DNA from: an uncultured bacterium
GTDB taxonomy: Bacteria; SAR324; NAC60-12
NCBI GenBank assembly: GCA_965662845.1
Contig: CBFIJD010000007.1
Coordinates: forward strand, 15,904-79,903
Reading direction: 5' to 3'
DNA: 64,000 nt
Below, piece after piece: positions 21,588 through 57,835 of the stretch. How positions within the stretch are numbered: position 1 is the first letter of the stretch; every line of letters begins with the position of its first letter. The position numbers were made by a program, and so were the translations under genes. The notes under the pieces are model-generated. The model saw only the letters and a program-made list of their open reading frames with translations, did not search any database and was not told the origin of the DNA.

Positions 21588-22166
21588 ATGCGAAAGAGAG
21601 CCAAAATGTGTGGTTTTCTGACCGCCGCTCTCTGGTGGGCTCTCCCACTATGGGCAGCCGATGGCGGAGAAGCGCATGGCGGTTCCTCGATGGATTTCCT
21701 CTGGAAAATCGTCAACACCGCCATCCTCGTTGGGATTCTCTACTACTTCGCTCGCAAACCTGTCGCGCAAGCCATGGGCAAGTCCGCTGCCGACGCGAAG
21801 AAAACCATCGAAGAAGCTCAGGCCGCCGAGAAGCAGATTGAAGCAGAGCTCACCAACGCCAAAGAGCGCCTCGCCAACATGGAGAAAGAGGCTGAGGAGA
21901 TGGTCTCAAAAGCAAAGGAACGCGCTGAGCTTGAGAAGCAACGTCTGATCGAAGAAGGGGAAGAAGAAGTTCGGCGCATGACGGAGCACGCCCGCTTCAC
22001 CATTGACCAAGAATATCGTAAGGCAGAATACGAGCTGCGCCAGTGGGTCGCTGGGGCCACCGTTGAGCTGGCTGAGCAGAAGCTCAAGAGCAGCATCAAC
22101 GCAGAGCAGCAGAAGAAACTTGCCCAGAATTTCCTCCAAAACTTTCAAAATGGAGAAGTTTCATGA
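21588..22166 (+). CDS. atpF: F0F1 ATP synthase subunit b
   Basis: The TM segment FLWKIVNTAILVGILYYFARKPV is followed by a long E/K-rich helix. Confidence 0.8.
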   Translation: MRKRAKMCGFLTAALWWALPLWAADGGEAHGGSSMDFLWKIVNTAILVGILYYFARKPVAQAMGKSAADAKKTIEEAQAAEKQIEAELTNAKERLANMEKEAEEMVSKAKERAELEKQRLIEEGEEEVRRMTEHARFTIDQEYRKAEYELRQWVAGATVELAEQKLKSSINAEQQKKLAQNFLQNFQNGEVS

Positions 22167-22717
22167 GCCAGATGGTCATCGCCAAGCGCTATGCCAAGGC
22201 TCTCGCTGGGCTAGCCCAACAACAAAATCAACTTGAGCAAGTTGATACAGAACTGCAGGACTTTGCCGAAAGTTTTGCGCAAGCGCCAACCCTGCGCGAA
22301 AGCCTAACGGACAACCGTCTCCCCCTCCAAACTCGCACCCAACTCTTGGGAGAGGTCCTCACGCAAATGAAGGTCACTCCGCTGGTCTCTACCTTTCTGC
22401 GCTTCCTCCTCAACAAGCGCCGCATGGAGCTGGTACCAGACATCGCTAAGGCCTTCGCTGATTTCCGTCAGGAGCTGATGGGCATTGTGCAGGCCGAGGT
22501 GATCGTCGCCAAAGAACCGCGCAGCAAAGAGAGCAAAGACATCCTGCAGCAAATTCAGGATCAACTCTCAGCCTTCACGGGCAAAACTGTGAAAATCAAC
22601 GTCACTGTGGATCCTTCCATCATCGGCGGCATCGTGGCCCGCATCGGTTCGGTGATGATCGACGGAAGCATCCGCAACCAACTTGTTCAAGTCCGTCAAT
22701 CGATCATCAGAGGTTGA
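22163..22717 (+). CDS. atpH: F0F1 ATP synthase subunit delta (OSCP)
   Basis: MSQMVIAKRYAKALAGLAQQ is an OSCP-family N-terminus. The start overlaps the atpF stop by 4 nt. Confidence 0.85.
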   Translation: MSQMVIAKRYAKALAGLAQQQNQLEQVDTELQDFAESFAQAPTLRESLTDNRLPLQTRTQLLGEVLTQMKVTPLVSTFLRFLLNKRRMELVPDIAKAFADFRQELMGIVQAEVIVAKEPRSKESKDILQQIQDQLSAFTGKTVKINVTVDPSIIGGIVARIGSVMIDGSIRNQLVQVRQSIIRG

Positions 22718-24232
<1,515 letters not shown>

Positions 24233-24294
24233 ACTGATTCCAGCCATCTACTGCCCGGCTACTGTGGTTGGGCAGGTCTCCGAGTTAAAATCGA

Positions 24295-26596
<2,302 letters not shown>

Positions 26597-27105: not shown

Positions 27106-27714
27106 TCAGTCAGCTTCCTCATCGACGGCCCTCATCTTCTCGCCAAGCAAAAAAATCTCTACGCTTTCATTCCGCGAACTCTTAGGTTTGCAGGTCTTCA
27201 CGTTCATGAACATGCGCCGAAAATCCGCTCTTAGCTTCTCGAAGGGAGCCCCTTGGAACGCCTTCACCAGCAACGATCCTCCTTGCTTGAGATGCTGTTG
27301 GGCCAGCCAGAGCACTTGCTGATTTAGAGCGTAAGAGCGATCGGCATCCGCAGCGCGTACACCACTCGTTTTCGGAGCCATATCGCTCAAAATTACATCA
27401 AATGGCTCCTGCCACCAGTGCTCGTCGCTGGTGTCGAGCGCAAAGACATCCGCTTGAACGACCTCCGCGTTTTGCGGCAGCGCCAATGTCACAGGTTGCA
27501 AATCCACTCCTAACAGGCGCCCGCGCTCTCCGATTTGCTTCAACGTGTATTGCATCCATGAGCCAGGACAGCACCCCACATCGAGCACCTTCTGACCGCT
27601 CCGCAACAGACCATGCTTGCGGTTGATCTCTTCGAGTTTGTAGGCAGAACGCGCAACATATCCGTCGCGCTTGGCTTGTTTGAAATAGTGATCCTGCACT
27701 TTTTTCATGGGCAT
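27106..27714 (-). CDS. rlmE: 23S rRNA (uridine2552-2'-O)-methyltransferase RlmE (FtsJ)
   Basis: Contains MPMKKVQDHYFKQAKRDGYVARSAYKLEEI...VLDVGCCPGSWMQY, the FtsJ-family SAM-binding motif. Confidence 0.88.
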   Translation of the reverse strand: MPMKKVQDHYFKQAKRDGYVARSAYKLEEINRKHGLLRSGQKVLDVGCCPGSWMQYTLKQIGERGRLLGVDLQPVTLALPQNAEVVQADVFALDTSDEHWWQEPFDVILSDMAPKTSGVRAADADRSYALNQQVLWLAQQHLKQGGSLLVKAFQGAPFEKLRADFRRMFMNVKTCKPKSSRNESVEIFLLGEKMRAVDEEAD

Positions 27715-27804
27715 GGCTGGGACAGAGGGTTGTTGATTTGCCTTTTCAAACGGATTTCCGTAGAAATTTGGTCTTTATTTGTTCCGCTCAACGAAAGGAG
27801 AGTT

Positions 27805-28176
27805 ATGGACTTCAAAGTTGCAGGTCTCACTCCGGCGAGTTTCTCTGATTATCTGGACACCAGCCGCTCCAACGGGATTTCTCCGATTTCCATGCAGGAG
27901 ATCCGAACCCTGCGCCAGAATTTTGAACGCGAGTGTGAGCCTCTACGAGCTGCGCTGGGGCCTGTAGAACACCAAACGATGCTGGTGACGATGTATGAAG
28001 GGACAGAAAAGCTCTTGAACCAACGACTGCCGACATTTGCCGTCCACGCTTTTTTGGAGGACTTGAAACTCAGCGCCCAAGAATTGCGACAACAAGGGAT
28101 CTCCGATCGCGAGTTTCGTCAACAGCTCATGCAAGACACCCAATCTAAGCTCCAAAGCCTCCTGAACAACGGCTAA
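27805..28176 (+). CDS. Hypothetical protein (123 aa)
   Basis: An AAAGGAGAG Shine-Dalgarno sequence lies 5 nt upstream of ATG 27805, within the longer track ORF 27613-28176. I recognise no domain. Confidence 0.5.
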   Translation: MDFKVAGLTPASFSDYLDTSRSNGISPISMQEIRTLRQNFERECEPLRAALGPVEHQTMLVTMYEGTEKLLNQRLPTFAVHAFLEDLKLSAQELRQQGISDREFRQQLMQDTQSKLQSLLNNG

Positions 28177-32739: not shown

Positions 32740-33315
32740 TCAAAACCACTGCTGGAGGGCTCCCCAAATGGCGTCTTTTCCCATCTTTGCCAGCGAAGAG
32801 TGCGGCAAGGGATCAGACGCGAGCCCCAGCTCGTCACGCACGAGCTTCAGCTGCTTCTGATATTGCCCACGCTTCAGCTTATCCATCTTGTTCGCGATCA
32901 CCAGCACAGGCTTTTCATAATAATCTAGCCACTCTTTCATCTGCTTATCATTGTTGTTGGGCCCATGTCGCACATCAATGATCAACACGACCCCCTTCAG
33001 CACCGCTCGATCCGATAAATATCCTTCAATCATGGGTTGCCATTGGCGCTGCACCGCCGTGGGCACCTTGGCGTAGCCATATCCGGGCAAGTCGACTAAC
33101 TGAAAATCATCGTTGATGCGGAAGAAATTGATGAGTTGGGTTTTGCCCGGCGTGGAGCTGGTTTTGACGAGCCCCTTGCGGTTGAGCAGCGAGTTGATGA
33201 GGGTGGACTTGCCGACATTGGATTTGCCGGCGAAGGCGATCTCTGAGAGTTCTGGGGGAGGGTACTGATCGGAGTTCGCCGCGCTTTTCACAAACTCGGC
33301 GGTGTGAATTTTCAT
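32740..33315 (-). CDS. engB: Ribosome biogenesis GTPase YsxC/EngB
   Basis: Carries AFAGKSNVGKSTLINSL (G1), DLPGYGYA (G3) and NKMDK (G4). Confidence 0.9.
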   Translation of the reverse strand: MKIHTAEFVKSAANSDQYPPPELSEIAFAGKSNVGKSTLINSLLNRKGLVKTSSTPGKTQLINFFRINDDFQLVDLPGYGYAKVPTAVQRQWQPMIEGYLSDRAVLKGVVLIIDVRHGPNNNDKQMKEWLDYYEKPVLVIANKMDKLKRGQYQKQLKLVRDELGLASDPLPHSSLAKMGKDAIWGALQQWF

Positions 33316-34211
33316 GACTCATCTTCCGCGCGCTTGTTTTCCTGCAACGTGACACGATCGACATTTTCCTGTGCATCGGGATCGTCCACCATCTCGGCAG
33401 GGATTGCCAAGTAGCGCTGCGCTTGCTGTCGCAAGTGCTCTTCGCGACAAGCCGGTTCGTTGCGGGAGAGGTCCAAGTAGAGCAAAACTGTTACAATCGA
33501 GGCATAAGGATAGAACAAGAGCGCAGTCAGGTATTGCGCTTGCCGCAAGGCGGTCATGAACTCATCGCTGCCCAAAGTATCGCTGATTGCTTGATCAATT
33601 TCGCCCTCTGCAGAGAGCAAGGCACCAAAGTTGATTTCCGGCATAAAGAACTGCAACAGCAACACAAAGAGCGCGAATTGCAGAAGCGTTGTGAACACGA
33701 TCGTCCCAAACGTCCTGCCAAGACGACTCTTCGTCAGCTGAAAGCTCCGCACCAGCGCTTGCAATCCCCGCAAGTCTTCCAGAATGCAGACGGGCTGCGC
33801 GATCGCGAACACGAAAATACTGCCCAGCCACATCGCAACCAAGATCACGTTCATCGGCGGAGGGAACACCAGCCCAGTCATGCCAAAGATGAACAGCAAA
33901 TACTGCAAGATGCCCACGTGCAGGGGACGGAGGGCCGTGCGAGACAAAAACTGCTGCAAGATCGTGCCTGTCGGGAAAATGCCCGCAAATAAGATCGACA
34001 AGATGCCGAGCATCACGCCAGCTTCGAGCAGTCGCATCATCAAAAAGAGCACAACGCTCTCGGTTTCCATCAAGTCTGCGAGGCTCAAGCCCATCGCTGG
34101 CAACAACAAAACGAGCGTCAGGCTCAAGATCGGTACCAGATGTGCTCGATAAATCTGCCAACTCTGAACAAAAATAGAAAAGATCGAAGGAGACGGAGGA
34201 ATAACGCTCAT
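33312..34211 (-). CDS. Hypothetical polytopic membrane protein
   Basis: It has about six predicted TM helices. Its stop overlaps the engB start as ATGA. The start is ambiguous, either M 34211 or the upstream M 34334. Confidence 0.5.
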   Translation of the reverse strand: MSVIPPSPSIFSIFVQSWQIYRAHLVPILSLTLVLLLPAMGLSLADLMETESVVLFLMMRLLEAGVMLGILSILFAGIFPTGTILQQFLSRTALRPLHVGILQYLLFIFGMTGLVFPPPMNVILVAMWLGSIFVFAIAQPVCILEDLRGLQALVRSFQLTKSRLGRTFGTIVFTTLLQFALFVLLLQFFMPEINFGALLSAEGEIDQAISDTLGSDEFMTALRQAQYLTALLFYPYASIVTVLLYLDLSRNEPACREEHLRQQAQRYLAIPAEMVDDPDAQENVDRVTLQENKRAEDES

Positions 34212-34301
34212 GCAGTGCTTTGGTAAGACAAGTTGGAATGTTTGGGAAGTGGACGCAGAAGACGGTCGCCCAAAGTGGGGATTTTGTGGTGCAATGAGAA
34301 A

Positions 34302-35324
34302 ATGATGAAAGAAAAAAATATAACCCGAACACAAACGGCTTTACAAGTCGAAGCCTCGCAACAAACCTTGCCGGATGAGTCGGATCTCATCATCCACGAG
34401 TTGAATCAAAAACTCGCGGTGCTGCGGCAGCAACTGCTAAATTATGAGCACAAACGCTCCCGCAAGGCGGCTGCGGATCCGGAACATCAGCAAACCACGC
34501 AGCGCCTCCGCGAGCGCATCGCGCGGCAGGAAGAGCAAGTCCAACGCCTCCGCGAAGAAAAAGCCGCCGCGCAGTTCCAAGCGGAGATGCTGCCCCGTAC
34601 GGTCGACACCCTGCGCGAGCCTGTTACGCAGGTTCATGAACAGCTAGACCTGCTGCTTCAGAAAATTGAAGACCCAGAGGTGCGGCGAGCACTCCAGCAG
34701 TGTCAACAATTGGCGACACAAATGCTCGTCGACGCTGAGGCCCAATGTGCCTCCGCAGAAGAGATCAACAAGCACTACGAACCCCAAAAACGCGCCGTCG
34801 AATTGCTGCGATTTTTTCGCAATGTCGCGAGGAATTACACACAGAAAGAGGAATGTCCCCTGCGCCTTTTCGCTTCCCCCCGACTGCCCCAGCAAATGCT
34901 GGTTGACCCTGCCGGTCTCCGTAGAGCCTTGGGCGCTTTGATGCAAGAGGCGCATCGCCGCAATCCTGACAAGCAGCTCCAGCTGCTGCTGCAACCCAAA
35001 GAGGGGCAGGCCTCTTCCGAATTGCAGATCACCATCAAAGGCGGCTCTCCGTGGCAGATCCCCCCCGTGGAGAGCTGGGGGCGCTACCTTGAGCACGCCA
35101 TGACTGATGATCACAGCAACGATGAAGAAAAAGCTGAGTTGTTGGTGGGACGAAAGATTGTGCAGGCGCATCAGGGGAAAATCTCGTTGCGCCGCGAGGG
35201 GGGAGATGTCGTTGGGCTAGAGGTCAACTTGCCGCTAGCGGCTCCAAGCGCTCTGAACGGTCAGGCCTATCCAGCCAGCGCCCAGAGCAACCGCGATGCT
35301 TCTACCACCGCGACGAATCCTTAG
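34302..35324 (+). CDS. Coiled-coil protein with a degenerate histidine-kinase-like ATPase (HATPase_c-like) C-terminal domain
   Basis: The N-terminal 200 aa are Q/E/R-rich coiled coil. The C-terminus reads LGALMQEAHRRNP...ELLVGRKIVQAHQGKISLRREGGDVVGLEVNLPL, which follows the HATPase_c fold pattern, but the G1/G2 glycine boxes and the N-box Asn are absent. Confidence 0.45.
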   Translation: MMKEKNITRTQTALQVEASQQTLPDESDLIIHELNQKLAVLRQQLLNYEHKRSRKAAADPEHQQTTQRLRERIARQEEQVQRLREEKAAAQFQAEMLPRTVDTLREPVTQVHEQLDLLLQKIEDPEVRRALQQCQQLATQMLVDAEAQCASAEEINKHYEPQKRAVELLRFFRNVARNYTQKEECPLRLFASPRLPQQMLVDPAGLRRALGALMQEAHRRNPDKQLQLLLQPKEGQASSELQITIKGGSPWQIPPVESWGRYLEHAMTDDHSNDEEKAELLVGRKIVQAHQGKISLRREGGDVVGLEVNLPLAAPSALNGQAYPASAQSNRDASTTATNP

Positions 35325-35802: not shown

Positions 35803-37614
35803 ATGCCCGCTGACTTTATCGCTGTCTTAGATTTTGGTAGCCAATATGCCCACCTGATCGCCAAACGCATCCGCCACTTGGGGTTTTTCACAGAAATCTT
35901 TGCGCCATCTGTGGAGACCCAGCGCCTGCGCGACGCCAAAGGCATTATCTTGTCGGGTGGTCCAGCGTCTGTTTTTGACAACGCGGCGCCAGCGCTCAAC
36001 CCAGAGATCCTCACCCTGTCGCAGCCGATGCTAGGGCTTTGCTACGGTCATCAGCTGATTGCCCAGCACTTTGGTGGAACCGTCGCGAATACAGGACAAG
36101 GCGAGTTTGGGAAGGCGCAGCTGCGTCTGATAAAGACCTCTCCACTTTGGGAACAAGTGCCCGAAACCTCACAAGTCTGGATGAGCCATCAAGACAGCGT
36201 GACGCAGCCTCCGCCAGGCTTTGACGTGATCGCCGAGACTCTCCCCGGCTCCATCGCGGCGATGCAGCACCAGACGCGCCCGCTCTTCACATTGCAGTTT
36301 CACCCAGAAGTCACAGACTCCCAATGCGGCACCCAAATCCTGCACAACTTTGTGAAGCAGTGTAGCGCGAACAAGAGCTGGAGTATGGAGCGCTTCATCG
36401 AAGCGACGACGCAGCAGCTGCAAGCGGAGGTTGGCGAGCGCAATGTGTTGATGTTTCTCAGCGGCGGTGTGGACTCTTCCGTCGCATTTGCGCTGCTCAC
36501 CAAAGCGCTGGGCACGGAGCGGGTGCTCGGGCTGTTCATCGACAACGGCTTCTTGCGGAAAAACGAAGCCGCGCAGATCATGGAGCGCTACACAGCGCTA
36601 GGGCTCACGAACGTTCGCGCCCGCGACTGCGCTGAGCAATTTCTGCAGGCTATCGCTGGCGAGGTCGACCCACAGCGCAAACGTCAGTCTGTCGGCGCGA
36701 CGTTTATTCATCGGCTCAACGCGTTCTTGCAAGAACTCAATCTTGACCCAGAACGCTGGATGCTCGGGCAAGGTACGCTCTATCCTGATATCATCGAGTC
36801 AGGGGGAACCGAGCACGCCAACGTAATCAAATCGCATCACAACCGCGTGCAAGAAGTCCAAGACTTGATGGAGGCCGGACAGGTCGTGGAGCCGCTCAAA
36901 GAACTCTACAAAGACGAAGTGCGACAAGTTGGAGAGCTGCTCGGTCTACCGCGCGAGATCGTCTGGCGACAGCCGTTCCCCGGCCCTGGGCTCTCCATCA
37001 ACGTACTCTGCGATGATGGGAACACGCCGCTGCGACACGCTTCTCCCGAGACGCTACAAGCTCTGCAAACCTTCGCTTCTGCCACGACGGACCTCTCGTT
37101 GCTGCCTGTACGCTCGGTCGGCGTGCAAGGAGACCAGCGCACCTACACCCAGCCCGCTGTGATCCTCGGAGCGAACGACTGGGACTGGCTCGAAGAGACC
37201 TCGATTGCGATTACAAATCAAATCCGCGCTGTGAACCGCGTGGTGGCGTATTTGCCGCCAGAACCCGCGACACGGCTGCCTCATTGGAAGTCTCGCCGCG
37301 CTTTCTGCGACCAACCTCGCCTTGACCTACTGCGCGACGCGGAGGAGATCGTCAGCGCCACCTTTGCGCGTCATGGTTGGATGGAGCGCATCTTCCAGCT
37401 ACTTGTGATCCTCCTGCCAATCTCGCAAACTGGGACGCAAGACAGCGTCGTGCTCCGACCTGTGATCTCCGAAGATGTGATGACGGCCCGCTTTGCGCCG
37501 ATCGGCTGGGACGTCGTGCAAGAGACGCTCACCCAACTCTACGCCTTGAGCGGTATTGACTCGGTCTTTTTTGATGTGACGCACAAGCCACCAGCTACGT
37601 TTGGTTGGGAATAG
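35803..37614 (+). CDS. guaA: GMP synthase (glutamine-hydrolysing)
   Basis: The GATase domain has IAVLDFGSQYAHLIAKRIR and the Cys-containing GLCYGHQL. The ATP-PPase loop is SGGVDSSV, and the C-terminus is KPPATFGWE. ATG 35803 lies within the track ORF that starts at 35737. Confidence 0.9.
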   Translation: MPADFIAVLDFGSQYAHLIAKRIRHLGFFTEIFAPSVETQRLRDAKGIILSGGPASVFDNAAPALNPEILTLSQPMLGLCYGHQLIAQHFGGTVANTGQGEFGKAQLRLIKTSPLWEQVPETSQVWMSHQDSVTQPPPGFDVIAETLPGSIAAMQHQTRPLFTLQFHPEVTDSQCGTQILHNFVKQCSANKSWSMERFIEATTQQLQAEVGERNVLMFLSGGVDSSVAFALLTKALGTERVLGLFIDNGFLRKNEAAQIMERYTALGLTNVRARDCAEQFLQAIAGEVDPQRKRQSVGATFIHRLNAFLQELNLDPERWMLGQGTLYPDIIESGGTEHANVIKSHHNRVQEVQDLMEAGQVVEPLKELYKDEVRQVGELLGLPREIVWRQPFPGPGLSINVLCDDGNTPLRHASPETLQALQTFASATTDLSLLPVRSVGVQGDQRTYTQPAVILGANDWDWLEETSIAITNQIRAVNRVVAYLPPEPATRLPHWKSRRAFCDQPRLDLLRDAEEIVSATFARHGWMERIFQLLVILLPISQTGTQDSVVLRPVISEDVMTARFAPIGWDVVQETLTQLYALSGIDSVFFDVTHKPPATFGWE

Positions 37615-37654: not shown

Positions 37655-38191
37655 ATGGTCATTTCCCGTCCACTCCAGCTTCCTCGCACCGAAGACATCC
37701 ACGAAGAGAACCTTGTGCCGGTGGTTCGCCAACTTGCCAGTGCGGTGAGTGAACTGACGGACGTACAGAACAGCCGCGACATGCAGCTCGTCAACGCGAT
37801 TGGCGACGTCAAAACAGAGGTGAAAGGCTTGCGCAAAGAGTTTGAAACTTCCCGCAAGGACTCGAACGCTCGCCTGGATCAAACGAACAGCCGCTTAGAT
37901 CAAACGAACAGCCGTCTGGAAGAGACGAACAGCCGCCTAGATCAAACCAACAGTCGTCTGGATCAAACGAACCAGCGCCTTGACAACCTGCATGACGACT
38001 TTGGTCAACTCCGCGCAGAGTTCGAAGGCTTTCGCTCCGACGCGAACCAGCGTCTGGATCAAACGAACCAGCGTCTGGACCAAACGAACAGCCGTCTGGA
38101 CCAAACGAACCAGCGTCTGGAGAACCTAGAGCACTCACAGTCCGAGATGGTCGAGTTGCTCAAAATGATCGCTCACAACACCTCGAAGTGA
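37655..38191 (+). CDS. Heptad-repeat (Lpp-like) coiled-coil protein with about 10 tandem xRLDQTN heptads. No signal peptide is evident.
   Basis: The protein contains ARLDQTN SRLDQTN SRLEETN SRLDQTN SRLDQTN QRLDNLH ... QRLDQTN QRLDQTN SRLDQTN QRLENLE. The QRLDN motif resembles the Braun lipoprotein heptads. Confidence 0.6.
   Translation: MVISRPLQLPRTEDIHEENLVPVVRQLASAVSELTDVQNSRDMQLVNAIGDVKTEVKGLRKEFETSRKDSNARLDQTNSRLDQTNSRLEETNSRLDQTNSRLDQTNQRLDNLHDDFGQLRAEFEGFRSDANQRLDQTNQRLDQTNSRLDQTNQRLENLEHSQSEMVELLKMIAHNTSK
37867..38130 (+). repeat. Imperfect in-frame 21-bp tandem repeats (consensus AGCCGTCTGGATCAAACGAAC) in two blocks, 5+1 and 3+1 units
   Basis: Read directly from the sequence. The units differ mainly at synonymous positions (ctg/tta/cta, acg/acc). 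Confidence 0.85.
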
Positions 38192-38206
38192 CCGCAATAG
38201 CCACAA

Positions 38207-38710
38207 ATGAATCCCCAAGATCCCCTCGCTGAGTTGCGTGAGATTGTCATCCCGCCTCCACCGTCGTTCTGGCCGCTGGCGCCGGGGTGGTGGCTCGCGC
38301 TCGCGTTGCTGCTCACCGTTCTGTTAGTCCTCAGTTGGCTGACGTGGCGCTGGTGGCGCCGTACGGCGCCGCGGCGGATGGCTCTGCGCCAGTTGCAAGC
38401 GCTGCGAACAGAGCTTCACGCTGCAGAGGACACGCTGCTGATAGTGCGGCGTTTGTCACAGCTGTTGCGTGAGACGGCGTTGCGCTGTCACCCGTGGGAA
38501 CGAGTTGCCGGATTGCACGGACAAGCGTGGTTGGAATTTCTCGACAGCACTGGTGGTGCGCAACAATTCACCCAAGGTGAGGGCAAAATCCTCGCAGAAG
38601 CTCCTTATCGCGCCGAAGTGCAAGATGTCGAGCCTGCGAGGCTGTTCCCCATTTGCCAAGCTTGGATTCGCCAACAACGGCTCCCTTCTTCCCGCAGTGC
38701 TCATGCTTGA
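38207..38710 (+). CDS. DUF4381-like membrane protein (Pro-rich N-terminus, single TM helix, Trp/Arg-rich juxtamembrane region)
   Basis: Contains IPPPPSFWPLAPGWWLALALLLTVLLVLSWLTWRWWRR. This family typically sits directly upstream of BatA-type VWA genes. Its stop overlaps the batA-like start as ATGCTTGA. Confidence 0.5.
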   Translation: MNPQDPLAELREIVIPPPPSFWPLAPGWWLALALLLTVLLVLSWLTWRWWRRTAPRRMALRQLQALRTELHAAEDTLLIVRRLSQLLRETALRCHPWERVAGLHGQAWLEFLDSTGGAQQFTQGEGKILAEAPYRAEVQDVEPARLFPICQAWIRQQRLPSSRSAHA

Positions 38711-39725
38711 ATTTCTCTGGCCTTGGCTCGCGCTCGCGTGGCCGCTTCCCTTGCTGATTCGGTGGTTTTGGTCGGCAGAGGCTACTCCTCCAGCGGCGCT
38801 GCGTGTTCCGTTCCTGCATCGCTTGCAGCAGCTCTCTGCGGCGCAAGAGTCGCCGTTGCCACGTCGTTCGTGGGCACCATTGGCGTTCGCGTTGTTGTTG
38901 TGGACGCTCCTCGTTATCGCGGCGCTGCGTCCGCAGTGGGTAGGTGATCCCATTGAGCTGCCGGTCTCTGGGCGCAGCTTGATGTTAGCGGTCGATTTGT
39001 CAGGTAGCATGAAAGAAGAAGATTTGCAGCTTCGCGGAGACTACGTCACGCGCTTGACGGTCGTGCAGTCGGTTTTGGAGGAGTTCATTGCGCGGCGGGA
39101 AGGCGATCGCCTCGGGCTGATTTTGTTCGGTGAGCAGGCGTACTTGCAGACGCCGCTGACTTTTGATCGCAACACGATTCAGCAAATGCTGCGCGAAGCC
39201 GTGATTGGACTGGCGGGGGAACGTACGGCCATCGGGAACGCGATTGGGCTCGGGGTGAAGCGCTTGCAAGAGCTGGAAGAGTCGGAGCGCGTGCTGATCT
39301 TGTTGACGGACGGGGCAAACACGGCGGGTGACATCTCCCCAGGACAAGCAGCGCGGCTCGCGGCGCAGGCAGGCATTCGCATCTATACGATTGGTGTCGG
39401 TGCTGATGAAATGCTGGTGCGCACCTTCTTCGGGACGCAACGGGTCAATCCTTCTCGTGACCTTGATGAGCAGCTGCTACAGAGCATCGCTGTTCAAACG
39501 GGAGGCCGCTACTTCCGCGCTCGCAGCACGCAAGAGCTGGCGCAAATTTATCAACTCCTCGATGAGTTGGAACCCGTCGAACGCGACGCCGAAGTCTTTC
39601 GCCCACTGCAACCGCTCTACCTCTATCCGCTGGGGCTCGCCTTGTTGTTGAGCGCGCTGTGGGTGCTTCGCGACCTCTGGCGACAAAACATCGCTCCTCG
39701 CCTCCGCAAGCCAGCGCATGGCTGA
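38703..39725 (+). CDS. VWA-domain membrane protein, BatA-like
   Basis: There are two N-terminal TM helices, then a VWA domain with MIDAS LMLAVDLSGSMKEED...ILLTDGANTAGD...YTIGVGAD, and a C-terminal TM helix. Confidence 0.75.
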   Translation: MLEFLWPWLALAWPLPLLIRWFWSAEATPPAALRVPFLHRLQQLSAAQESPLPRRSWAPLAFALLLWTLLVIAALRPQWVGDPIELPVSGRSLMLAVDLSGSMKEEDLQLRGDYVTRLTVVQSVLEEFIARREGDRLGLILFGEQAYLQTPLTFDRNTIQQMLREAVIGLAGERTAIGNAIGLGVKRLQELEESERVLILLTDGANTAGDISPGQAARLAAQAGIRIYTIGVGADEMLVRTFFGTQRVNPSRDLDEQLLQSIAVQTGGRYFRARSTQELAQIYQLLDELEPVERDAEVFRPLQPLYLYPLGLALLLSALWVLRDLWRQNIAPRLRKPAHG

Positions 39726-40674
39726 GTTCCCGCTCCCGGCCTCGCTGCTGCCTCTGCTGTTTGCGCAGAGTCCACACGGGCTGCTGCTGGTGCAACATGA
39801 CCAAATCCTCCGCGCTAACCCGGCGGCGCAGCGCTGGCTGTCCCTCTCGGTTTCTCTGCCGTGCGCGCTCCGCGACGTGTTGCCAGAGGTCGCCGGATCG
39901 TTCCAGACACAGCACCTGCGGTTGAGAGATCAACGGTCTGGGACGCTGCGTTGGTTCCCGTTAGAGCAAGATCATTGGCTCGCGCAACTGGAAGCCTCCG
40001 AGAGCTTGGAACCTCGCCACGCTCGCAAAGAAGGCATCGGAGATGCGACCTCGGCGCTGGCTCACGAGCTGCGCACACCACTCGCCACGATTCGGATGAT
40101 CACAGAGAATTTCCAGCTTCGCCAACAGCTTGGCAAAGAGCTAACGCTGGAGAACTTCGCCAAGTTGCCAGACATCGTCGAGCAGTGTGACCAGATTCTG
40201 GAGACGATGCTCGCGCTCGGGCGTAGCCCTGAGTTTGACCAGCCGGCAGTCCTGCCGCTCAACAAGCTGGTGAAGAGCGCTCTACTGCTGCAAAAGCGTT
40301 GGCTCTCTCGTCAGCAGGTGCAACTTCAGCGAGAGTTCTGTGACAGAGAGCCTGTTGTGCGCTGCAAACCATCGCAGTTTGAGCAAACTCTGGGAGCGCT
40401 CTGTCAATTTTTGATTTTACATACACCCTTTCATCAGAGAGAGCGGACGCTACAAACGAAGACGCTAGTAGCGGGAGAACAGGCGGAATTGGAGCTGCGC
40501 ACAGCGAGAGAGGGAGGCGAGGTGAGCTTGGCGGAAAAGTGGGCTCATTTGCGGGCAGCGCTCGCAGAACACGGAGGCGAGCTGCGTGATGAGAGCACCT
40601 CCGAGCAATTTTGTGTGCGGTGGCAGCTACCCTTGCTGGGGTTCGCCGACGAACTGCTGCACGACGGGACGTAA
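39718..40674 (+). CDS. Histidine-kinase-like protein with an intact HisKA H-box but a degenerate ATPase domain (a possible pseudokinase or phosphatase)
   Basis: The H-box is SALAHELRTPLATIRMITENF. The downstream region follows the HATPase_c topology (...LAEHGGELRDESTSEQFCVRWQLPL) but lacks the N, G1 and G2 boxes. Its start overlaps the batA-like stop as ATGGCTGA. Confidence 0.5.
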   Translation: MAEFPLPASLLPLLFAQSPHGLLLVQHDQILRANPAAQRWLSLSVSLPCALRDVLPEVAGSFQTQHLRLRDQRSGTLRWFPLEQDHWLAQLEASESLEPRHARKEGIGDATSALAHELRTPLATIRMITENFQLRQQLGKELTLENFAKLPDIVEQCDQILETMLALGRSPEFDQPAVLPLNKLVKSALLLQKRWLSRQQVQLQREFCDREPVVRCKPSQFEQTLGALCQFLILHTPFHQRERTLQTKTLVAGEQAELELRTAREGGEVSLAEKWAHLRAALAEHGGELRDESTSEQFCVRWQLPLLGFADELLHDGT

Positions 40675-41271
40675 GGTCTCTAGCACCGTGTCCGCCATGA
40701 TTTTGTGCCCTGCGGGGTTTGGGTGAATGCCATCTGGCAGGTTCAGCGAGCGCACGCCGCCGACATCTTGTAAGAGGAAGGGCACCATGGGGAGCTGGTA
40801 AGCTTCGGCGACTTCAAAGAAAGCTTGGCGGTAGGCGGTCGTGTATTCCTCGCCGTAGTTCATCGGCATCTGCATGCCTGTCATCACCACGCGGACATTC
40901 TCGGCTTGTGCCATCTCAATCGCTTTGGAGAGGTTCTCCTTCATGCTCCCCACGTCGAGCCCTCGGAGTCCGTCATTGGCGCCTAACGCCAACAACATGA
41001 TGTGCGGCTTCTGGCGCAGGTACCACTTCAGCCGACTGGGAGCGCTGGCGCTTGTGGCCCCACTGAAGCCACCGTTGATCATCTTTACGTCAAAGCCTTC
41101 GGTGCGTAACTGCTGTTCCACGATGTACGGAAACGCCTCATCTTCAGCGACGCCAAAGCCCTCGGTGAGGGAGTCACCCAACGCCAAAATTCTCACTTCC
41201 GCCATTGCTCCCAAGGGAAAAAAGCCGCACACTGTCAGCACCAAAATCACGAAGTAGCTGATTTTCTTCAT
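40627..41271 (-). CDS. SGNH/GDSL hydrolase (TesA-like arylesterase/lysophospholipase), secreted
   Basis: The signal peptide is followed by ILALGDSLTEGFG (the catalytic Ser block), GANDGL, and DGIHPN (the catalytic His block). Confidence 0.8.
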   Translation of the reverse strand: MKKISYFVILVLTVCGFFPLGAMAEVRILALGDSLTEGFGVAEDEAFPYIVEQQLRTEGFDVKMINGGFSGATSASAPSRLKWYLRQKPHIMLLALGANDGLRGLDVGSMKENLSKAIEMAQAENVRVVMTGMQMPMNYGEEYTTAYRQAFFEVAEAYQLPMVPFLLQDVGGVRSLNLPDGIHPNPAGHKIMADTVLETLRPVVQQFVGEPQQG

Positions 41272-41342: not shown

Positions 41343-42428
41343 ATGACTGCATACATCCTCCGCCGCTTGCTGCTGATGGTCCCCACACTGATTGGAATCA
41401 TGACCATCAACTTTGTGATTGTGCAGATCGCGCCGGGCGGTCCCGTAGATCAGTTCATCGCGCGGATGCAAGGACACGGCGGCATGGACGCGACGGCACG
41501 CCTCACCAACACCGCGAACGAGAACGCTGGGAGCTCAAGCGCAGAATCCAAGACGCGCGGGGCACAAGGCATTGACCCCGACTTGTTACGTGAGATTGAG
41601 AAGTTGTATGGCTTCGACAAGCCGGCACATGAGCGATACGTCGACATGCTCGTCAACTATGCGGTGTTTGACTTTGGCGAGAGCTTTTATCGCGACCGCA
41701 CGGTGACGGAATTGATTCTGGAGAAGCTGCCGGTCTCGGCCTCGTTGGGCATCTGGAGCACGCTGCTGGTCTATCTGGTGTGCATCCCGCTGGGCATCCG
41801 AAAAGCGGTGCGTCACGGCTCGCGCTTTGACGTCTGGACCTCGACCACGATCATTATCGGCAACGCGATCCCCGTGTTTTTGTTTGCGATTCTGCTGATC
41901 ATTTTGTTTGCGGGAGGCAATTACCTCAACTGGTTCCCGCTGCGAGGACTGACGTCGGATCACTTCGCCGAGCTCAGCCTCTTCGGACAAATCCTCGACT
42001 ATTTCTGGCACCTCGCCTTGCCATTGACCGCGATTGTGATTGGCAGCTTCGCCACGTTGACCATGCTCACCAAGAACTCCTTCCTCGATGAAATCGGCAA
42101 GCAATACGTCGTGACCGCCCGCGCCAAAGGCTTGCCCGAACGCCGCGTGCTCTACGGACACGTCTTCCGCAACGCGATGCTGATCATCATCGCAGGGTTC
42201 CCAGCGGCGTTCATCAGCATGTTCTTCACGGGCTCGCTGTTGATTGAGGTGATCTTCTCCCTTGATGGGCTCGGTTTGCTCGGCTTTGAAGCGACGATCC
42301 AGCGTGACTATCCCGTTATGTTCGGTACGCTGTATATCTTCACGCTGCTCGGTCTCATCGTGAACCTCATCAGCGACGTGCTCTACACCGTGATTGATCC
42401 CCGCATCGACTTTGAAGCGCGGGGGTAG
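41343..42428 (+). CDS. ABC transporter permease, OppB/YejB family. It is solitary: no ATPase, second permease or binding-protein gene is adjacent.
   Basis: [34 protein letters not shown] is the OppB-type N-terminus. It has a large periplasmic loop, and the C-terminal EAA-like region is [21 protein letters not shown]. Confidence 0.75.
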
Positions 42429-42486
42429 CGTCCGCAAATGTCGTCGGACGCACGAGCGCACGTCGAAACACCCCACACAGGAACGC

Positions 42487-43314
42487 ATGTCCCGCTCTCG
42501 CTGGCTCGGATTTCTCATCTTTTGCGGATTTCTTGGATTATCCACCCAACTTCTGGCGGCTCCCTCTGCCGAGCTGTGGCCCCGCTGGGAGGCGCACAAT
42601 TCGAGCGCCTCAGCACAGATCGACCATACGCCTTGGGACGAGTTTCTGTCCCGCTTTCTGGACGCCAACACGGCCTCTGGCATTCACCTGATGCGCTACG
42701 CGCAAGTGGACGCAGCCTCGCGTCAGCGACTGCAACGCTACCTGCAACAGTTACAAAACACGCCGATTTCGCAGTTCAACCGCGACGAACAGATGGCGTT
42801 CTGGATCAATCTCTACAACGCCCGCACCGTCGAGTTGATTCTGCAGGAAGCTCCGGTTTCTTCGATTACCGACATTTCGTTTAGCCTCTTCAGCTTTGGG
42901 CCGTGGGGCGAAGAGCTGCTGACCGTCGAGAACGAAAGGCTCTCGCTAGACGACATCGAGCACCGCATCTTGCGCCCCATCTGGAGAGACCCACGCATTC
43001 ACTACGCGGTGAACTGCGCCAGCCTCGGGTGCCCCAACTTGCAACCCAAAGCCTTCACCGCGGCGACCTTAGAAGCGCAGCTCGAACAAGCCGCCCGCGA
43101 GTTTGTGAACCACCCCCGCGGGGTCCGCTTTGAAGGCGAAGCCTTAATCCTCTCCAAAATTTACGATTGGTTTCAGGAAGATTTTGGGGCTCACGAAGCG
43201 GACGTCCTCCGCCACCTGGTGCTCTATGCCGAACCAGAGTTGGCCGAACGCTTGCGGTCTTTCGAGGGAGAGATCGACTACGAATATGACTGGAATCTCA
43301 ACGAGGAGCGCTGA
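42487..43314 (+). CDS. DUF547 domain-containing secreted protein
   Basis: A signal peptide is followed by AFWINLYNARTVELIL...HYAVNCASLGCPNL, which I recognise as the DUF547 signature. Its TGA stop sits 1 nt before the next gene's ATG. Confidence 0.6.
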   Translation: MSRSRWLGFLIFCGFLGLSTQLLAAPSAELWPRWEAHNSSASAQIDHTPWDEFLSRFLDANTASGIHLMRYAQVDAASRQRLQRYLQQLQNTPISQFNRDEQMAFWINLYNARTVELILQEAPVSSITDISFSLFSFGPWGEELLTVENERLSLDDIEHRILRPIWRDPRIHYAVNCASLGCPNLQPKAFTAATLEAQLEQAAREFVNHPRGVRFEGEALILSKIYDWFQEDFGAHEADVLRHLVLYAEPELAERLRSFEGEIDYEYDWNLNEER

Positions 43315-43315
43315 C

Positions 43316-45508
43316 ATGAACCCCTTTCTGCAAGACCGCCAACGCTGGGTGCTGGGCCTCGTAGTGTTGCTCGTCGGGCTGTTTTTTGTGCTGGATCTGC
43401 CAAATGTGCTGACGTTGGAAAACCTCAAAGCCTCGCGGGAAGGCTTCCGAGAGTCTTATGCTGCGAATCCCTTTTGGTTTGGGATGCTCTACTTCGTGGG
43501 ATACGTGATCGTGACGGCGTCTTCGGTGCCGGGGGCTGCCGTGCTGACGCTCGCGGGAGGCGCGGTGTTTGGGCTGGTCGGCGGCACGCTGCTGGTCTCG
43601 TTCGCCAGCACGATCGGCGCAACGTTGGCGATGCTCGCGGCGCGATTTCTGTTATATCCCAGCGTAGAAAAACGCTTTGGGGACTCCTTGCGGCGCCTCA
43701 ACCGTGGCGTTGAGCGGGAGGGAGCCTTCTACTTGTTCACGTTGCGGTTGGTTCCGATTGTGCCGTTTTTCGTCATCAATTTGGGCATGGGGCTCACCAA
43801 AATGCCGGCTCGCACCTTTTATTGGGTCAGCCAGCTGGGCATGTTGCCCGGAACCATCGTCTATGTGAACGCTGGCGCTGAGCTTGGACAAATCGAATCG
43901 ATGGGCGACATCTTGTCTGGCAGCCTGCTGTTTTCCTTCGCCTTGTTGGGGATCTTCCCTCTTGTCGCTAAGAAAGGAGTGGAAGCCTATCGCAAGCGTC
44001 GCGCCCCGCAGCCTACGTCTACGACCTCAAGCAGCTCCGCCCAAGTGAACGCTGCGCCTGCCGTACACACACCGCGACCTTACGATTACAACCTCGTCGC
44101 GATTGGCGCGGGCGCGGCGGGTCTCGTCACGACGTACATGGGCGCCGCGTTGCAAGCTCGCGTGGCGTTGATCGAGAAGCACAAAATGGGCGGTGACTGC
44201 TTGAACACCGGCTGCGTGCCCAGCAAAGCGCTATTGAGCAGCGCCAAAGCCGCACAACAGATGCGAAACGCCGCGAAATACGGGCTCGAACCCGTCGAGG
44301 TGCAGGTGAACTTTGCGCAGGTGATGACGCAGGTGCAGCAAATCATTCAGCGCATCGAGCCGCACGACAGCGTCGAGCGTTACACGGCGCTTGGCGTGGA
44401 GTGTCTGCAAGGCGAGGCGTTCGTGCATTCGCCCAACGAGGTCGAAGTCTTTGGACAAAAGCTCACCACGAGTCGTCTCGTGATCGCGACCGGAGCACGT
44501 CCGTTTGTCCCGCCGATTGTCGGTCTGGAACGAGTCCCGTTCTCGCATTCGGACAACATCTGGGAGCTGCGTCAGCTGCCTCGGCGTTTGGTCGTGATCG
44601 GTGGTGGTCCGATCGGTTGCGAGCTAGCGCAGGCGTTTCAACGTCTTGGGTCACAGGTCACGTTGCTCGAGCGAGGCCCTGACATCCTGCCCAAAGAAGA
44701 CCGAGACATGGCGACCTTTGTTCAGCGCCGCATGGAAGCCGACGGCGTGCGCATTTTGACCGGTGTGACTCTGGAGAACGTCGCGCGCGTTGGCGACGTG
44801 ACGCACGTACACCTGCAGGGGCACGACGGGCAAGTGGTCGCCTGTGAGCACATCCTCGTGGCGGCGGGGCGCAAAGCCAACACAGACGGTTTTGGGCTGG
44901 AAGCGCTAGGCGTGGAGAAAAACCCAGACGGGACGCTGTGGGTGGACGCTCACTTACAGACAAGCGCGGCGGGGATCTATGCGTGTGGCGACGTGGCGGG
45001 ACCGTATCAGTTCACGCACATGGCCGGGCACCAAGGGTGGTATGCGTCGGTCAACGCTCTGTTCTCGCCGCTGAAGCAGTTCGCGGTGGACTACTCGGTC
45101 GTGCCTTGGTGCACCTACACCGATCCAGAGTTGGCGCATGTCGGCCTGAGCGAGACGATGGCGCAAGCGCAGAACATCCCCTACGAGGTCACGGTCTTCC
45201 CGCTGAACGACCTTGACCGCGCCATCACCGACCGCACAGATGAGGGCCAAATCAAAGTGTTGACGAAGCCCAACTCTGACAAAATCCTCGGCGCGACCAT
45301 CTGTGGGCATCACGCGGGAGACTTGCTGACGGAGTATATTCTGGCGATGAAGCACGGTCTCGGGCTCAACAAAATTCTCGGGACGATTCATCCGTACCCA
45401 ACGCTCGCGGAAGGCAACAAGTTGCTCGCTGGGGCGTGGCGTCGAAACCACAGCCCAGCGTGGCTGATGCCGTATCTCAAAGCCTTTCACACGTGGAAGC
45501 GGAGCTGA
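43316..45508 (+). CDS. Fusion of an N-terminal DedA/TVP38 (SNARE-associated) membrane domain with a C-terminal FAD-dependent pyridine nucleotide-disulfide oxidoreductase (mercuric reductase/dihydrolipoamide dehydrogenase-like)
   Basis: The DedA region is VPGAAVLTLAGGAVFGLVGGTLLVSFASTIGATLAML...RLVPIVPF. The FAD region is LVAIGAGAAGLVTTYMGA...GGDCLNTGCVPSKALL (a redox CxxxxC), the NAD-binding motif is VVIGGGPIGCELAQAF, and the C-terminus is ...HPYPTLAEG. Confidence 0.8.
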   Translation: MNPFLQDRQRWVLGLVVLLVGLFFVLDLPNVLTLENLKASREGFRESYAANPFWFGMLYFVGYVIVTASSVPGAAVLTLAGGAVFGLVGGTLLVSFASTIGATLAMLAARFLLYPSVEKRFGDSLRRLNRGVEREGAFYLFTLRLVPIVPFFVINLGMGLTKMPARTFYWVSQLGMLPGTIVYVNAGAELGQIESMGDILSGSLLFSFALLGIFPLVAKKGVEAYRKRRAPQPTSTTSSSSAQVNAAPAVHTPRPYDYNLVAIGAGAAGLVTTYMGAALQARVALIEKHKMGGDCLNTGCVPSKALLSSAKAAQQMRNAAKYGLEPVEVQVNFAQVMTQVQQIIQRIEPHDSVERYTALGVECLQGEAFVHSPNEVEVFGQKLTTSRLVIATGARPFVPPIVGLERVPFSHSDNIWELRQLPRRLVVIGGGPIGCELAQAFQRLGSQVTLLERGPDILPKEDRDMATFVQRRMEADGVRILTGVTLENVARVGDVTHVHLQGHDGQVVACEHILVAAGRKANTDGFGLEALGVEKNPDGTLWVDAHLQTSAAGIYACGDVAGPYQFTHMAGHQGWYASVNALFSPLKQFAVDYSVVPWCTYTDPELAHVGLSETMAQAQNIPYEVTVFPLNDLDRAITDRTDEGQIKVLTKPNSDKILGATICGHHAGDLLTEYILAMKHGLGLNKILGTIHPYPTLAEGNKLLAGAWRRNHSPAWLMPYLKAFHTWKRS

Positions 45509-45509
45509 C

Positions 45510-47129
45510 TCAACGCTGCGGAGCGGCGTATTTCGCAGCAAAGGGGGTCGCGCCGGCTTGCTTCTGCACGCGCTCGTTGGCAGCGAGATGCTCCAGCAGC
45601 TTGAAGAGCGTCTCGGTTTGTGAGGAGACGTCTAAGGCCGCAGCGAGTTCTTCTAACGAGCAGTAGCGCTGCGGCTCGGAGCGCAGCTGTGCCAGCAGCT
45701 TGGTTTGTAAGGCAAGCACGTCACCCGCCGCTTTTTTTCCCGCCTCAACTCCCGGCTGATGATAGGCGTTGATGCCAATGAGATGAGCGTAGATGCCCAC
45801 GGCCCGCTCAAAGAGCGCGACCAACGCGCCCACCGTCTGTGGCGAGACCTCGTCCAGGGTCAAGGTGATCGACTCCCGCTGCTGTTCGTGCAGCGCTTGG
45901 CGGGTTCCCAGCAAGAAGCCGAGCAAATAGTCACCCGAAGTGACGTCCTCTTCCACCTCTAGCGCCTCCCCTCGTCGATCTTTGAGCACTTCCAAAAACA
46001 CAACGAAGAAGTCATTTCGTCCATCGCGGAGCTGTTGCACGTAGGCGTGCTGGTCGGTGGAGCCTTTGTTGCCATACACCGACAGCCCTTGCTCGACGAG
46101 GTCACCGCTCAGGTTGTGGGCTTTGCCGATGGACTCCATCACGAGCTGTTGCAGGTAGCGGCTGAAGAGCAGCAAGCGGTCTTTGTACGGCAGTACGACC
46201 ATCGCCTTGTCGCCCCGACCGTTGCCCGCGTACCACCACATCAGAGCTAGCTGTGCGGCGGGGTTTTGCTTGGGGTTGGGGTTGCGCCCGTGCTCATCCA
46301 TTGCCTTGGCGCCGGCGAGCATCGCGTCGAGGTTCACGCCTTGGAGCGCGGCGGGGAGCAGCCCGACGGCTGAGAACTCGGACGTGCGCCCCCCGACCCA
46401 GTCCCACATTGGAAACGTCGCTAACCAAGCTTGCTCGGTCGCGAGCTGCTCCAGCTGGCTCCCTCCGCTCGTCACGGCGATGGCGTGGGACGCGAAGTTC
46501 AGCCCTGCCGCTTGGTAGATGTGCTGAGTTTCAAGCATCGCGTTGCGCGTTTCTGCGGTGCTCCCTGACTTGGAGATGACGATGCAAAGCGTGCGTGCCA
46601 GCTCATTGTGCAGCGCCGCGAAGACGCTCTCAAAGCCGTCGGGGTCGGTGTTGTCCAGAAAGTGTAGCTGAATTTTCGACAGCGGAGCGCGCATCGCCAA
46701 GTCCACGAATTGAGGCCCGAGCGCCGAACCCCCGATCCCGATCACGAGCACATGTCGGAAGGGTTCCCCCTGTTCGTTGGCGAGGTCACCTTTGCGAACC
46801 TTGGCCGCGAAGGTGTTCACCTGCTGTCGTGTCTGGTGGATCGCGTCTCGGAGCTCTGCGTTGGGCGCTCGCTCGGGGTCTCGCAGCCAATAGTGCCCGA
46901 CTCTACGCTGTTCGTCGGGGTTGGCGATCGCGCCGCCTTCGAGGTCTCGCATGTGCTGCAGAGCGTTCTCCAGCGCGGCAGCGTGGGTCTGCCAAAAGGA
47001 AGCTGGGAAGTTCATGCGGGAGATGTCCAGCGCGATGCCGGTGCCCGAGAGTGGCAAGTAATATTCCTGAAAGCGATCCCATCCGGTTGGTGATGTCATC
47101 GAGACCTCCATGAGAGTTAGAAAAAGCAA
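45510..47129 (-). CDS. pgi: Glucose-6-phosphate isomerase
   Basis: 539 aa. Contains GHYWLRDPERAP, the SIS-domain motif ...IGIGGSALGPQF, and the C-terminal PGI signature region. An alternative start is M 47099. Confidence 0.85.
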   Translation of the reverse strand: MLFLTLMEVSMTSPTGWDRFQEYYLPLSGTGIALDISRMNFPASFWQTHAAALENALQHMRDLEGGAIANPDEQRRVGHYWLRDPERAPNAELRDAIHQTRQQVNTFAAKVRKGDLANEQGEPFRHVLVIGIGGSALGPQFVDLAMRAPLSKIQLHFLDNTDPDGFESVFAALHNELARTLCIVISKSGSTAETRNAMLETQHIYQAAGLNFASHAIAVTSGGSQLEQLATEQAWLATFPMWDWVGGRTSEFSAVGLLPAALQGVNLDAMLAGAKAMDEHGRNPNPKQNPAAQLALMWWYAGNGRGDKAMVVLPYKDRLLLFSRYLQQLVMESIGKAHNLSGDLVEQGLSVYGNKGSTDQHAYVQQLRDGRNDFFVVFLEVLKDRRGEALEVEEDVTSGDYLLGFLLGTRQALHEQQRESITLTLDEVSPQTVGALVALFERAVGIYAHLIGINAYHQPGVEAGKKAAGDVLALQTKLLAQLRSEPQRYCSLEELAAALDVSSQTETLFKLLEHLAANERVQKQAGATPFAAKYAAPQR

Positions 47130-57680: not shown

Positions 57681-57835
57681 ACCCTGATCTGTTCGAGGTT
57701 GACGAAAAACCACCTGCCCGATGCAACAATCATGACACTCCTTCAGGCCTGTGTGACGATTTGCTACGCTCTTTGCATCCCTCCGACAACCTCAATTTCC
57801 CAACCTTTGCCGAAGTTTTTCAGAGACGAGCGAAC

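Follow-up and report, generated by a model that had tools for sequence, protein, structure and literature searches.

A MoxR-less DUF4381-BatA gene pair beside a histidine-kinase derivative without ATP-binding boxes in a SAR324-type bacterium

We analyzed a locus of four plus-strand genes at positions 37655-40674 of a 64,000-nt stretch of DNA (the window) from contig CBFIJD010000007.1 of an uncultured SAR324 bacterium. In order, the genes encode a coiled-coil protein, a DUF4381 protein, a BatA-type membrane protein with a VWA domain, and a protein derived from a histidine kinase (hereafter the kinase-like protein). The locus is a reduced variant of the known Bat/MoxR-VWA operon (MoxR-DUF58-DUF4381-BatA-BatB-BatD) joined, in a single lineage, by an orphan protein of a degenerate-kinase class already known. 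The DUF4381-BatA pair recurred in related genomes, where neither of the two extra genes was detected, and the arrangement looks like ordinary gene-neighbourhood turnover rather than a new signalling system.

The DUF4381-BatA pair and its neighbourhood

The genes of the locus, the repeats within it and its two neighbours are as follows:

35803-37614, plus strand: guaA (GMP synthase), the upstream neighbour; Pfam GATase, NAD_synthase and GMP_synt_C
37655-38191, plus strand: soluble coiled-coil protein of 178 aa with LDQTNSR-type heptads, lineage-specific
37863-37980, plus strand: 21-bp tandem repeat block 1 within the coiled-coil gene, 5.6 copies (Tandem Repeats Finder)
38043-38121, plus strand: 21-bp tandem repeat block 2 within the same gene, 3.8 copies, copy number differing between strains (Tandem Repeats Finder)
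38207-38710, plus strand: DUF4381 protein of 167 aa (PF14316)
38703-39725, plus strand: BatA-type membrane VWA protein of 340 aa (Pfam VWA/VWA_2)
39718-40674, plus strand: soluble, ATP-blind histidine-kinase derivative of 318 aa (Pfam HisKA, box-by-box alignment, AlphaFold2 and Foldseek)
40627-41271, minus strand: GDSL-family lipase/acylhydrolase, the convergent neighbour (Pfam Lipase_GDSL_2, E=1e-26; synteny in the comparison loci L002, L005, L011 and L012)

The coiled-coil gene begins 41 nt after guaA, for which the ATG at 35803 is the probable start within an open reading frame (ORF) opening at 35737, and the intergenic gaps in the run from guaA to the kinase-like gene measured 15-41 nt where the genes did not overlap. 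Start and stop codons overlapped by 8 nt at the DUF4381/BatA junction (ATGCTTGA, 38703-38710) and again at the BatA/kinase-like junction (ATGGCTGA, 39718-39725). The BatA start was set at the ATG at 38703 according to its homologues; a longer ORF with a GTG start at 38469 had no homologue support. The 3' ends of the kinase-like gene and the convergent lipase gene overlapped by 48 nt. A terminator-like site was not found in the plus-strand intergenic gaps, and the scans for promoters and terminators gave counts no higher than those of shuffled controls. The four genes are probably cotranscribed with guaA. An earlier sequence-only reading had described four tightly packed plus-strand genes with 8-nt overlaps at both junctions, absent Bat partners and a degenerate kinase; this observation was confirmed.

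The DUF4381 protein matched PF14316 with E=9e-41 (140 bits against a Pfam cut-off of 27.2) and sits immediately upstream of BatA, as in the Bat/MoxR-VWA operon. Its single hydrophobic window indicated one transmembrane helix at about residues 21-49, and because an Arg-rich stretch follows this helix, the C-terminal domain is probably cytoplasmic by the positive-inside rule. BatA matched Pfam VWA (E=3e-19) with a weak secondary PF01882 (DUF58) signal inside the VWA domain, and its best NCBIfam match, VWA_BatA_Lepto, scored 144 bits, under the cut-off of 380. The MIDAS motif (for metal-ion-dependent adhesion site), DLSGS...T...D, was intact, and DLSGS, GERTAIG and LLTDG were conserved in the alignment. 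Hydrophobic segments were present at residues 55-80 and 304-323 (the C-terminal helix), in addition to a Trp/Pro-rich N-terminal helix. The basic character of the BatA tail and the Arg-rich DUF4381 segment suggest that both are exposed to the cytoplasm. The inner-membrane BatA of Borrelia, BB0173, provides a precedent with the VWA/MIDAS domain toward the periplasm (PMC5700661). The function of Bat proteins is unsettled, and deletion of batABD in Leptospira gave no oxidative-stress phenotype (PMC3557215).

BatA shared about 60% identity with its gammaproteobacterial counterparts and 74-77% with those of the SAR324 type; its closest relatives were found in SAR324 or 'Deltaproteobacteria' genomes and on contigs of marine metagenomes, with 76% identity for the best match in the search of genome contigs. 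The DUF4381 orthologues in the SAR324-type loci were 53-56% identical to the window protein. The nearest BatA relatives identify the organism as SAR324-type, and the GC content was 57%, versus 46-55% in the sister lineages. Since the DUF4381/BatA start-stop overlap was also present in L002, L008 and L010, it is a family trait and no peculiarity of this locus.

The partners of the operon were sought by Pfam on nearly all window ORFs of at least 180 aa that do not shadow another gene; for four genes at 41343-47129, the precomputed Pfam results for the corresponding genes of L001, a contig from a near-identical strain, were used. No AAA_3/MoxR, DUF58, BatB (VWA-TPR) or BatD was found among these larger ORFs, and tblastn with the MoxR, DUF58, BatB and BatD of L010 yielded nothing in the window or in the SAR324-type loci. 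Two of the six components of the operon (DUF4381 and BatA) were thus present and four (MoxR, DUF58, BatB and BatD) absent, and the earlier statement that MoxR, DUF58 and BatB are missing nearby was borne out. Downstream of BatA, the kinase-like gene and then the convergent lipase gene stood in place of BatB and BatD. The pair resembled the operon in the clear homology of both proteins, the MIDAS, the transmembrane layout and the start-stop coupling, whereas it differed in the lack of the four partners and in its setting, with guaA on one side and a convergent GDSL lipase gene on the other. The partners may lie at a second locus of the same genome, because a Bat cluster with a MoxR-like ATPase has been reported in SAR324 bins (PMC4782131). 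A metagenome scan with the L010 MoxR recovered only relatives of at most 68% identity and no contig from the source sample 3300038702.

The gene order in relatives was compared. Three loci (L002-L004) had the order guaA-DUF4381-BatA-GDSL, with the lipase gene on the minus strand; their DUF4381 gene had been missed by the gene finder yet was present at 54% identity. Five others (L005-L007, L011 and L012) had an acetyltransferase gene in the place of guaA and were otherwise the same, and L013 carried DUF4381-BatA on a contig ending right after BatA. In the relatives with sequence past BatA, the convergent lipase gene abutted BatA directly. In L002, DUF4381 starts 28 nt after the guaA orthologue (603 aa, 73% identity), and the BatA and lipase stops are 1 nt apart, so no hidden remnant of a kinase gene is possible there. 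None of the SAR324-type loci (L002-L007 and L011-L013) contained a coiled-coil, kinase-like, MoxR, DUF58, BatB or BatD gene within up to 10 kb. In the identity matrices the window branched deepest within the SAR324-type clade, between whose deeper lineages BatA was 74-82% and DUF4381 53-72% identical; the history needing the fewest steps for the extra genes is therefore a single gain in the lineage of the window.

The comparison was widened to 77 other BatA loci. MoxR was present within 3.5 kb in 44 of the 63 loci whose sequence reached far enough upstream, and BatB adjoined BatA in 57 of the 69 whose sequence reached far enough downstream; adjacent MoxR was missing in 19 of the 63, indicating that a MoxR-less BatA is not rare. 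The kinase-like and coiled-coil genes occurred in none of these 77 loci or of 80 MoxR-centred metagenome loci, and tblastn against about 170 other loci (about 160 of them Bat/MoxR) detected neither gene. The next-nearest BatA relatives, L010 and L014 ('Deltaproteobacteria'; BatA about 60-64% identical), held the canonical operon, and their flanks shared no genes with the window. These neighbourhoods lend no support to the earlier proposal of a repurposed VWA module wired to a pseudokinase: the gene order does not support the four genes as a conserved module, and the conserved unit is the MoxR-less DUF4381-BatA pair.

Other departures from the canonical order were also recorded in this survey. 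No MoxR or DUF58 gene stood next to DUF4381-BatA-BatB in L008, L016-L018, L021 and L044 (Methylococcales) or in L009 and L031 (Thiomargarita). In a Thiomargarita contig, DUF4381 and BatA stood apart, with a CAP-domain gene and one for a 1024-aa Flg_new_2 protein between them, and in L072, MoxR-DUF58 was found on the opposite strand, about 8 kb upstream.

The kinase-like protein and the coiled-coil protein

A Pfam scan of the kinase-like protein at E<=0.1 gave HisKA (E=2e-8), a weak PAS_8 match and no HATPase_c match. The boxes were assessed in an alignment with 77 histidine kinases from among its best matches in a representative library (78 sequences in all). Only the H-box of the four histidine-kinase boxes was kept (AHELRTPLA, with H116, E117, T120 and P121); H116, encoded at 40063-40065, was invariant across the alignment. 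The N box was lost, its two nearly invariant Asn columns being occupied by A227 and F231 (the latter Leu in a third variant of the protein). The G1 box had T262 for its Asp and R264 for its first Gly, with the last Gly, G266, alone retained, and the F/G2 ATP lid was replaced by an 18-column in-frame gap opposite IFePFFTTKpvGkGTGLG. The residues H116-E117-L-R-T120 fit E/D-x-x-T/N right after the His, which is the phosphatase motif of the HisKA family.

The AlphaFold2 model had a mean predicted local distance difference test score (pLDDT) of 80.8, with values above 90 in the CA-like (catalytic and ATP-binding) domain. It consisted of a short PAS-like N-terminus, partly of low confidence (residues 59-84, pLDDT <50), a DHp (dimerization and histidine phosphotransfer) hairpin at residues 83-168 (about 39964-40221) and an alpha/beta CA-like domain without a lid at residues 177-305 (about 40246-40632). 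Between strand 255-263 and helix 271-283, where the ATP lid is expected, the model had a loop of 7 residues, and the last ~13 residues of the protein extended past the predicted fold. Foldseek matched class I kinase cores (HK853, YycG and LOV-kinase chimeras) and the non-canonical DivL and RetS. The ORF was intact over 318 codons, with GC3 of 0.67 and GC2 of 0.41, similar to the neighbouring genes. Alignment and model together support a histidine-kinase derivative that is predicted to be unable to bind ATP and that retains the phospho-acceptor and the phosphatase motif. The sequence-only reading had likewise seen a kept H-box and lost ATP-binding boxes, and no intact G1 or G2 box emerged from the alignment.

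The best sequence and fold matches were PAS-HisKA-HATPase_c kinases (AtoS/ZraS/NtrB-like), with which the kinase-like protein shared the H-box, the DHp and the first half of the CA domain; it differed in lacking the N-box Asn pair, the G1 Asp and first Gly, the F/G2 lid and a HATPase_c match. With ChpT of Caulobacter, Spo0B of Bacillus and PhyT/PhyP of Sphingomonas it had in common a DHp with a conserved His joined to a CA-like domain unable to hold ATP. ChpT does not bind ATP and acts as a phosphotransferase, its ATP lid being replaced (PMC3433190), whereas the lid is deleted in the kinase-like protein. PhyT, which is kinase-derived and has a degenerated ATPase domain, is a phosphotransferase or phosphatase, and Spo0B is a similar precedent (PMC5898713). 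Unlike these proteins, the kinase-like protein has an N-terminal PAS-like remnant and no nearby receiver partner, and no sequence-family relationship to them was detected, the Pfam matches being HisKA and the weak PAS_8 only. By its predicted architecture it belongs to the ChpT/Spo0B/PhyT type, in an architectural and not a sequence-family sense.

Full-length relatives of the kinase-like protein were not recovered. A word-index search of 5.8 billion protein clusters returned only the protein itself, and a HMMER pass over 1.84 billion representative proteins found no full-length relative: the best other match (E=5e-13) covered residues 97-227 only, the others were generic kinases aligned over residues ~90-230, and identity to any kinase was at most 31%. 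By these searches the protein is an orphan. Its nearest relative in the genome was the second module of a hybrid kinase of the window (28% identical across 183 residues; pairwise E=3e-19), with which it shared a subfamily-specific LGxE insertion and a conserved Cys in DHp helix 2:

10595-13357, minus strand: hybrid kinase of 920 aa, HAMP-HisKA-HATPase_c-REC-HisKA-HATPase, a receiver flanked by two complete kinase modules

Another degenerate protein of the kinase type, 363 aa long, was encoded 4 kb upstream at 34233-35324 on the plus strand. It had no Pfam or NCBIfam match, and hhalign related it to the DHp and CA domains of the kinase alignment with a probability of 88.6% (E=2.6e-6). An Asp replaces its phospho-acceptor His (VDTLREPVT versus AHELxxPLx), and no N, G1 or G2 residues remain. 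Unlike the kinase-like gene at 39718-40674, it was conserved and syntenic in L002 (48% identity). The presence of this second relic suggests that the lineage tolerates or exploits degenerate kinases.

The coiled-coil protein lacked a hydrophobic segment, a signal peptide and a lipobox. In its gene, which displayed a coding-type GC1/GC2/GC3 pattern, the heptad LDQTNSR is encoded by the two 21-bp tandem repeat blocks. Its family matches were sub-threshold or generic coiled-coil; DUF5798 and UPF0184 barely exceeded their cut-offs, which fits the repeat composition. The best database matches (43% identity over 56% of the length) were partial and compositionally driven, and the two homologue contexts inspected were both unrelated, one being a sugar-nucleotide cluster and the other a hypothetical-gene cluster. 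Pfam matched three of the four proteins (DUF4381, VWA and HisKA) and gave only diffuse coiled-coil hits for this one. The earlier description of a non-secreted, Lpp-like heptad protein held for the heptads and the lack of secretion, but the likeness to Lpp was weak, the Lpp/OprI model NF040598 of NCBIfam scoring 18.6 bits against a cut-off of 43. A short heptad-repeat coiled coil is common to the protein and the Lpp/OprI alanine-zipper lipoproteins, and its NQRLDN appears to resemble the C-terminal region of Lpp; it differs from them in having no signal peptide or lipobox, in scoring below the hidden Markov model cut-off and in that its repeats are recent 21-bp tandem repeats of the DNA.

A second strain, represented by the JGI contig L001, was 99.75% identical to the window. 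Its coiled-coil gene was 42 nt shorter, equal to two in-frame repeat units (window 38043-38121 versus L001:1-99), and because L001 ends inside this repeat, the repeat probably breaks assemblies. No single-nucleotide polymorphism (SNP) was found across 38696-40767 (2,072 nt, including BatA and the kinase-like gene), where about five were expected from the 12.6-kb average, and nine SNPs between the two strains clustered in the adjoining lipase gene. The SNP-free tract could reflect a recent sweep, a recombination tract or uneven SNP density.

Origin and possible role of the extra genes

The reading we favor, and regard as moderately probable, is that a remnant DUF4381-BatA pair acquired both extra genes by local gain and that the kinase-like protein acts in phosphotransfer or as a phosphatase. 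The pair would be a two-gene remnant of the MoxR-DUF58-DUF4381-BatA-BatB-BatD operon, kept clade-wide beside the convergent lipase gene. DUF4381, a predicted single-pass membrane protein, would be translationally coupled to BatA, a putative three-helix inner-membrane protein whose VWA domain, with its MIDAS, would face the periplasm on the model of BB0173 of Borrelia. In the window lineage, the coiled-coil gene would then have been placed upstream of the pair and the kinase-like gene downstream. Mobile-element signatures around the two extra genes amounted to short chance-level repeats, and no GC anomaly was found around them. The kinase-like protein is predicted to be unable to autophosphorylate; like its functional precedents, it most likely works as a dimeric DHp protein that takes up phosphoryl groups from receivers phosphorylated by other kinases, hands them on or strips them off, with the hybrid kinase at 10595-13357 as a candidate partner. 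The juxtaposition of the four genes would be a local accident of gene gain with no conserved functional coupling.

Several points weigh against this reading. Acquisition by the clade ancestor with one later loss would cost only one step more than a single gain, and the 8-nt ATG/TGA overlap of BatA and the kinase-like gene resembles the junctions of co-evolved operons. No receiver-domain gene adjoins the kinase-like gene. The sole receiver (REC) domain detected in the 64 kb belongs to the hybrid kinase, at a distance of 27 kb, which makes the phosphotransfer partner named above a guess. The two strains were identical in the kinase-like gene and the third variant differed by F231L only, too little divergence for a dN/dS estimate. 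The pLDDT of the CA-like domain is partly owed to the true-kinase alignment supplied to AlphaFold2. Decay, moreover, is a serious rival, the kinase-like protein being an orphan without a nearby partner whose ORF runs into the lipase antisense.

Should decay be the explanation, the kinase-like ORF would be the non-functional relic of a kinase gene, or of part of one, that had landed between BatA and the lipase gene, its boxes lost and itself heading to deletion, and the coiled-coil ORF an unlinked, fast-evolving repeat gene. This is consistent with an orphan among 15 billion proteins that has lost all ATP-binding boxes, has a short PAS-like N-terminus with a stretch of low confidence (residues 59-84), continues 48 nt into the lipase antisense before its stop so that its last ~13 residues fall outside the fold, has no cognate regulator nearby and is absent in relatives. 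A 957-nt ORF at ~60% GC is, however, improbable to have stayed open by chance, given at most 31% identity to any kinase. Its H-box is near-perfect consensus although no other catalytic feature is kept, the lid deletion is clean and in frame with the flanking strand and helix still in register, and its codon-position GC is like that of expressed genes here. A phosphotransfer or phosphatase role, proposed by analogy, is somewhat more likely than decay because the ORF is intact, its codon-position GC is of the coding type and the lid was deleted cleanly; we consider the relic unlikely, if worth keeping in mind.

The module of the sequence-only reading, in which DUF4381-BatA is coupled to an ATP-blind kinase homologue that replaces MoxR/DUF58, with the coiled coil as a scaffold, appears improbable. 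The compact same-strand packing with its 8-nt start/stop overlaps and no terminator-like site in the gaps, the failure to find MoxR, DUF58 and BatB in the 64 kb and the SNP-free tract over BatA and the kinase-like gene are all in its favor, and contact with a soluble protein would be possible, since both the BatA tail and the C-terminal domain of DUF4381 probably lie in the cytoplasm. Yet the association is confined to a single species-level lineage, both extra genes are missing from all five sister lineages as well as from the 77 other BatA loci and the 80 MoxR loci, and homologues of the coiled-coil protein sit in unrelated neighbourhoods. A DHp protein, furthermore, has no known route to substitute for an AAA+ remodelling ATPase, and since the sister lineages retain the MoxR-less pair without the kinase-like gene, the pair does not need it. 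Less probable still is a RetS- or DivL-like regulator that binds another kinase, such as the second module of the hybrid kinase, through its DHp without passing phosphate. That module is the nearest relative in the genome and shares the LGxE insertion and the Cys, Foldseek listed both DivL and RetS, and DivL is reportedly a repurposed pseudokinase; on the other hand, 28% identity says nothing on heterodimer compatibility, the two genes are 27 kb apart, and RetS and DivL retain a fuller CA domain. We give the least credence, and very little, to the idea that, in this one lineage, the MoxR-less pair is functionally coupled to the ATP-blind DHp protein and feeds a periplasmic binding event at the VWA/MIDAS domain to a phosphorelay by way of the cytoplasmic DUF4381 domain or the tail of BatA, with the coiled coil, variable in its repeats, as an adjustable spacer or scaffold; if true, it would be a previously undescribed link between a VWA protein and a two-component system.

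Other window genes and significance

The other window genes identified by Pfam were housekeeping and flagellar genes, ATP synthase genes and the hybrid histidine kinase. They included an F-type ATP synthase operon at 21588-26596 on the plus strand and, at 59341-63578 on the minus strand, the flagellar export/basal-body genes FliI, FliH and FliF, indicating a motile organism. Four ORFs of 187-429 aa had no Pfam match or a weak zinc-ribbon match (18746-20035, minus; 27613-28176, plus; 33312-34334, minus; 56901-57713, minus); that at 33312-34334 encodes a multi-pass membrane protein whose L002 orthologue had a faint DUF7847 match. An Rfam scan of the window returned no match. A defence-system reading was also tried with PADLOC and rejected, the output being coiled-coil noise only.

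The practical value of the locus is modest, and it opens no long-standing question. The kinase-like protein is one more case, and an orphan one, in which a histidine kinase has lost the ATP pocket and kept the DHp motif, in the class of ChpT, Spo0B and PhyT. The clade-wide DUF4381-BatA pair, maintained under apparent purifying selection without adjoining partners, bears on whether BatA needs a MoxR chaperone in cis.

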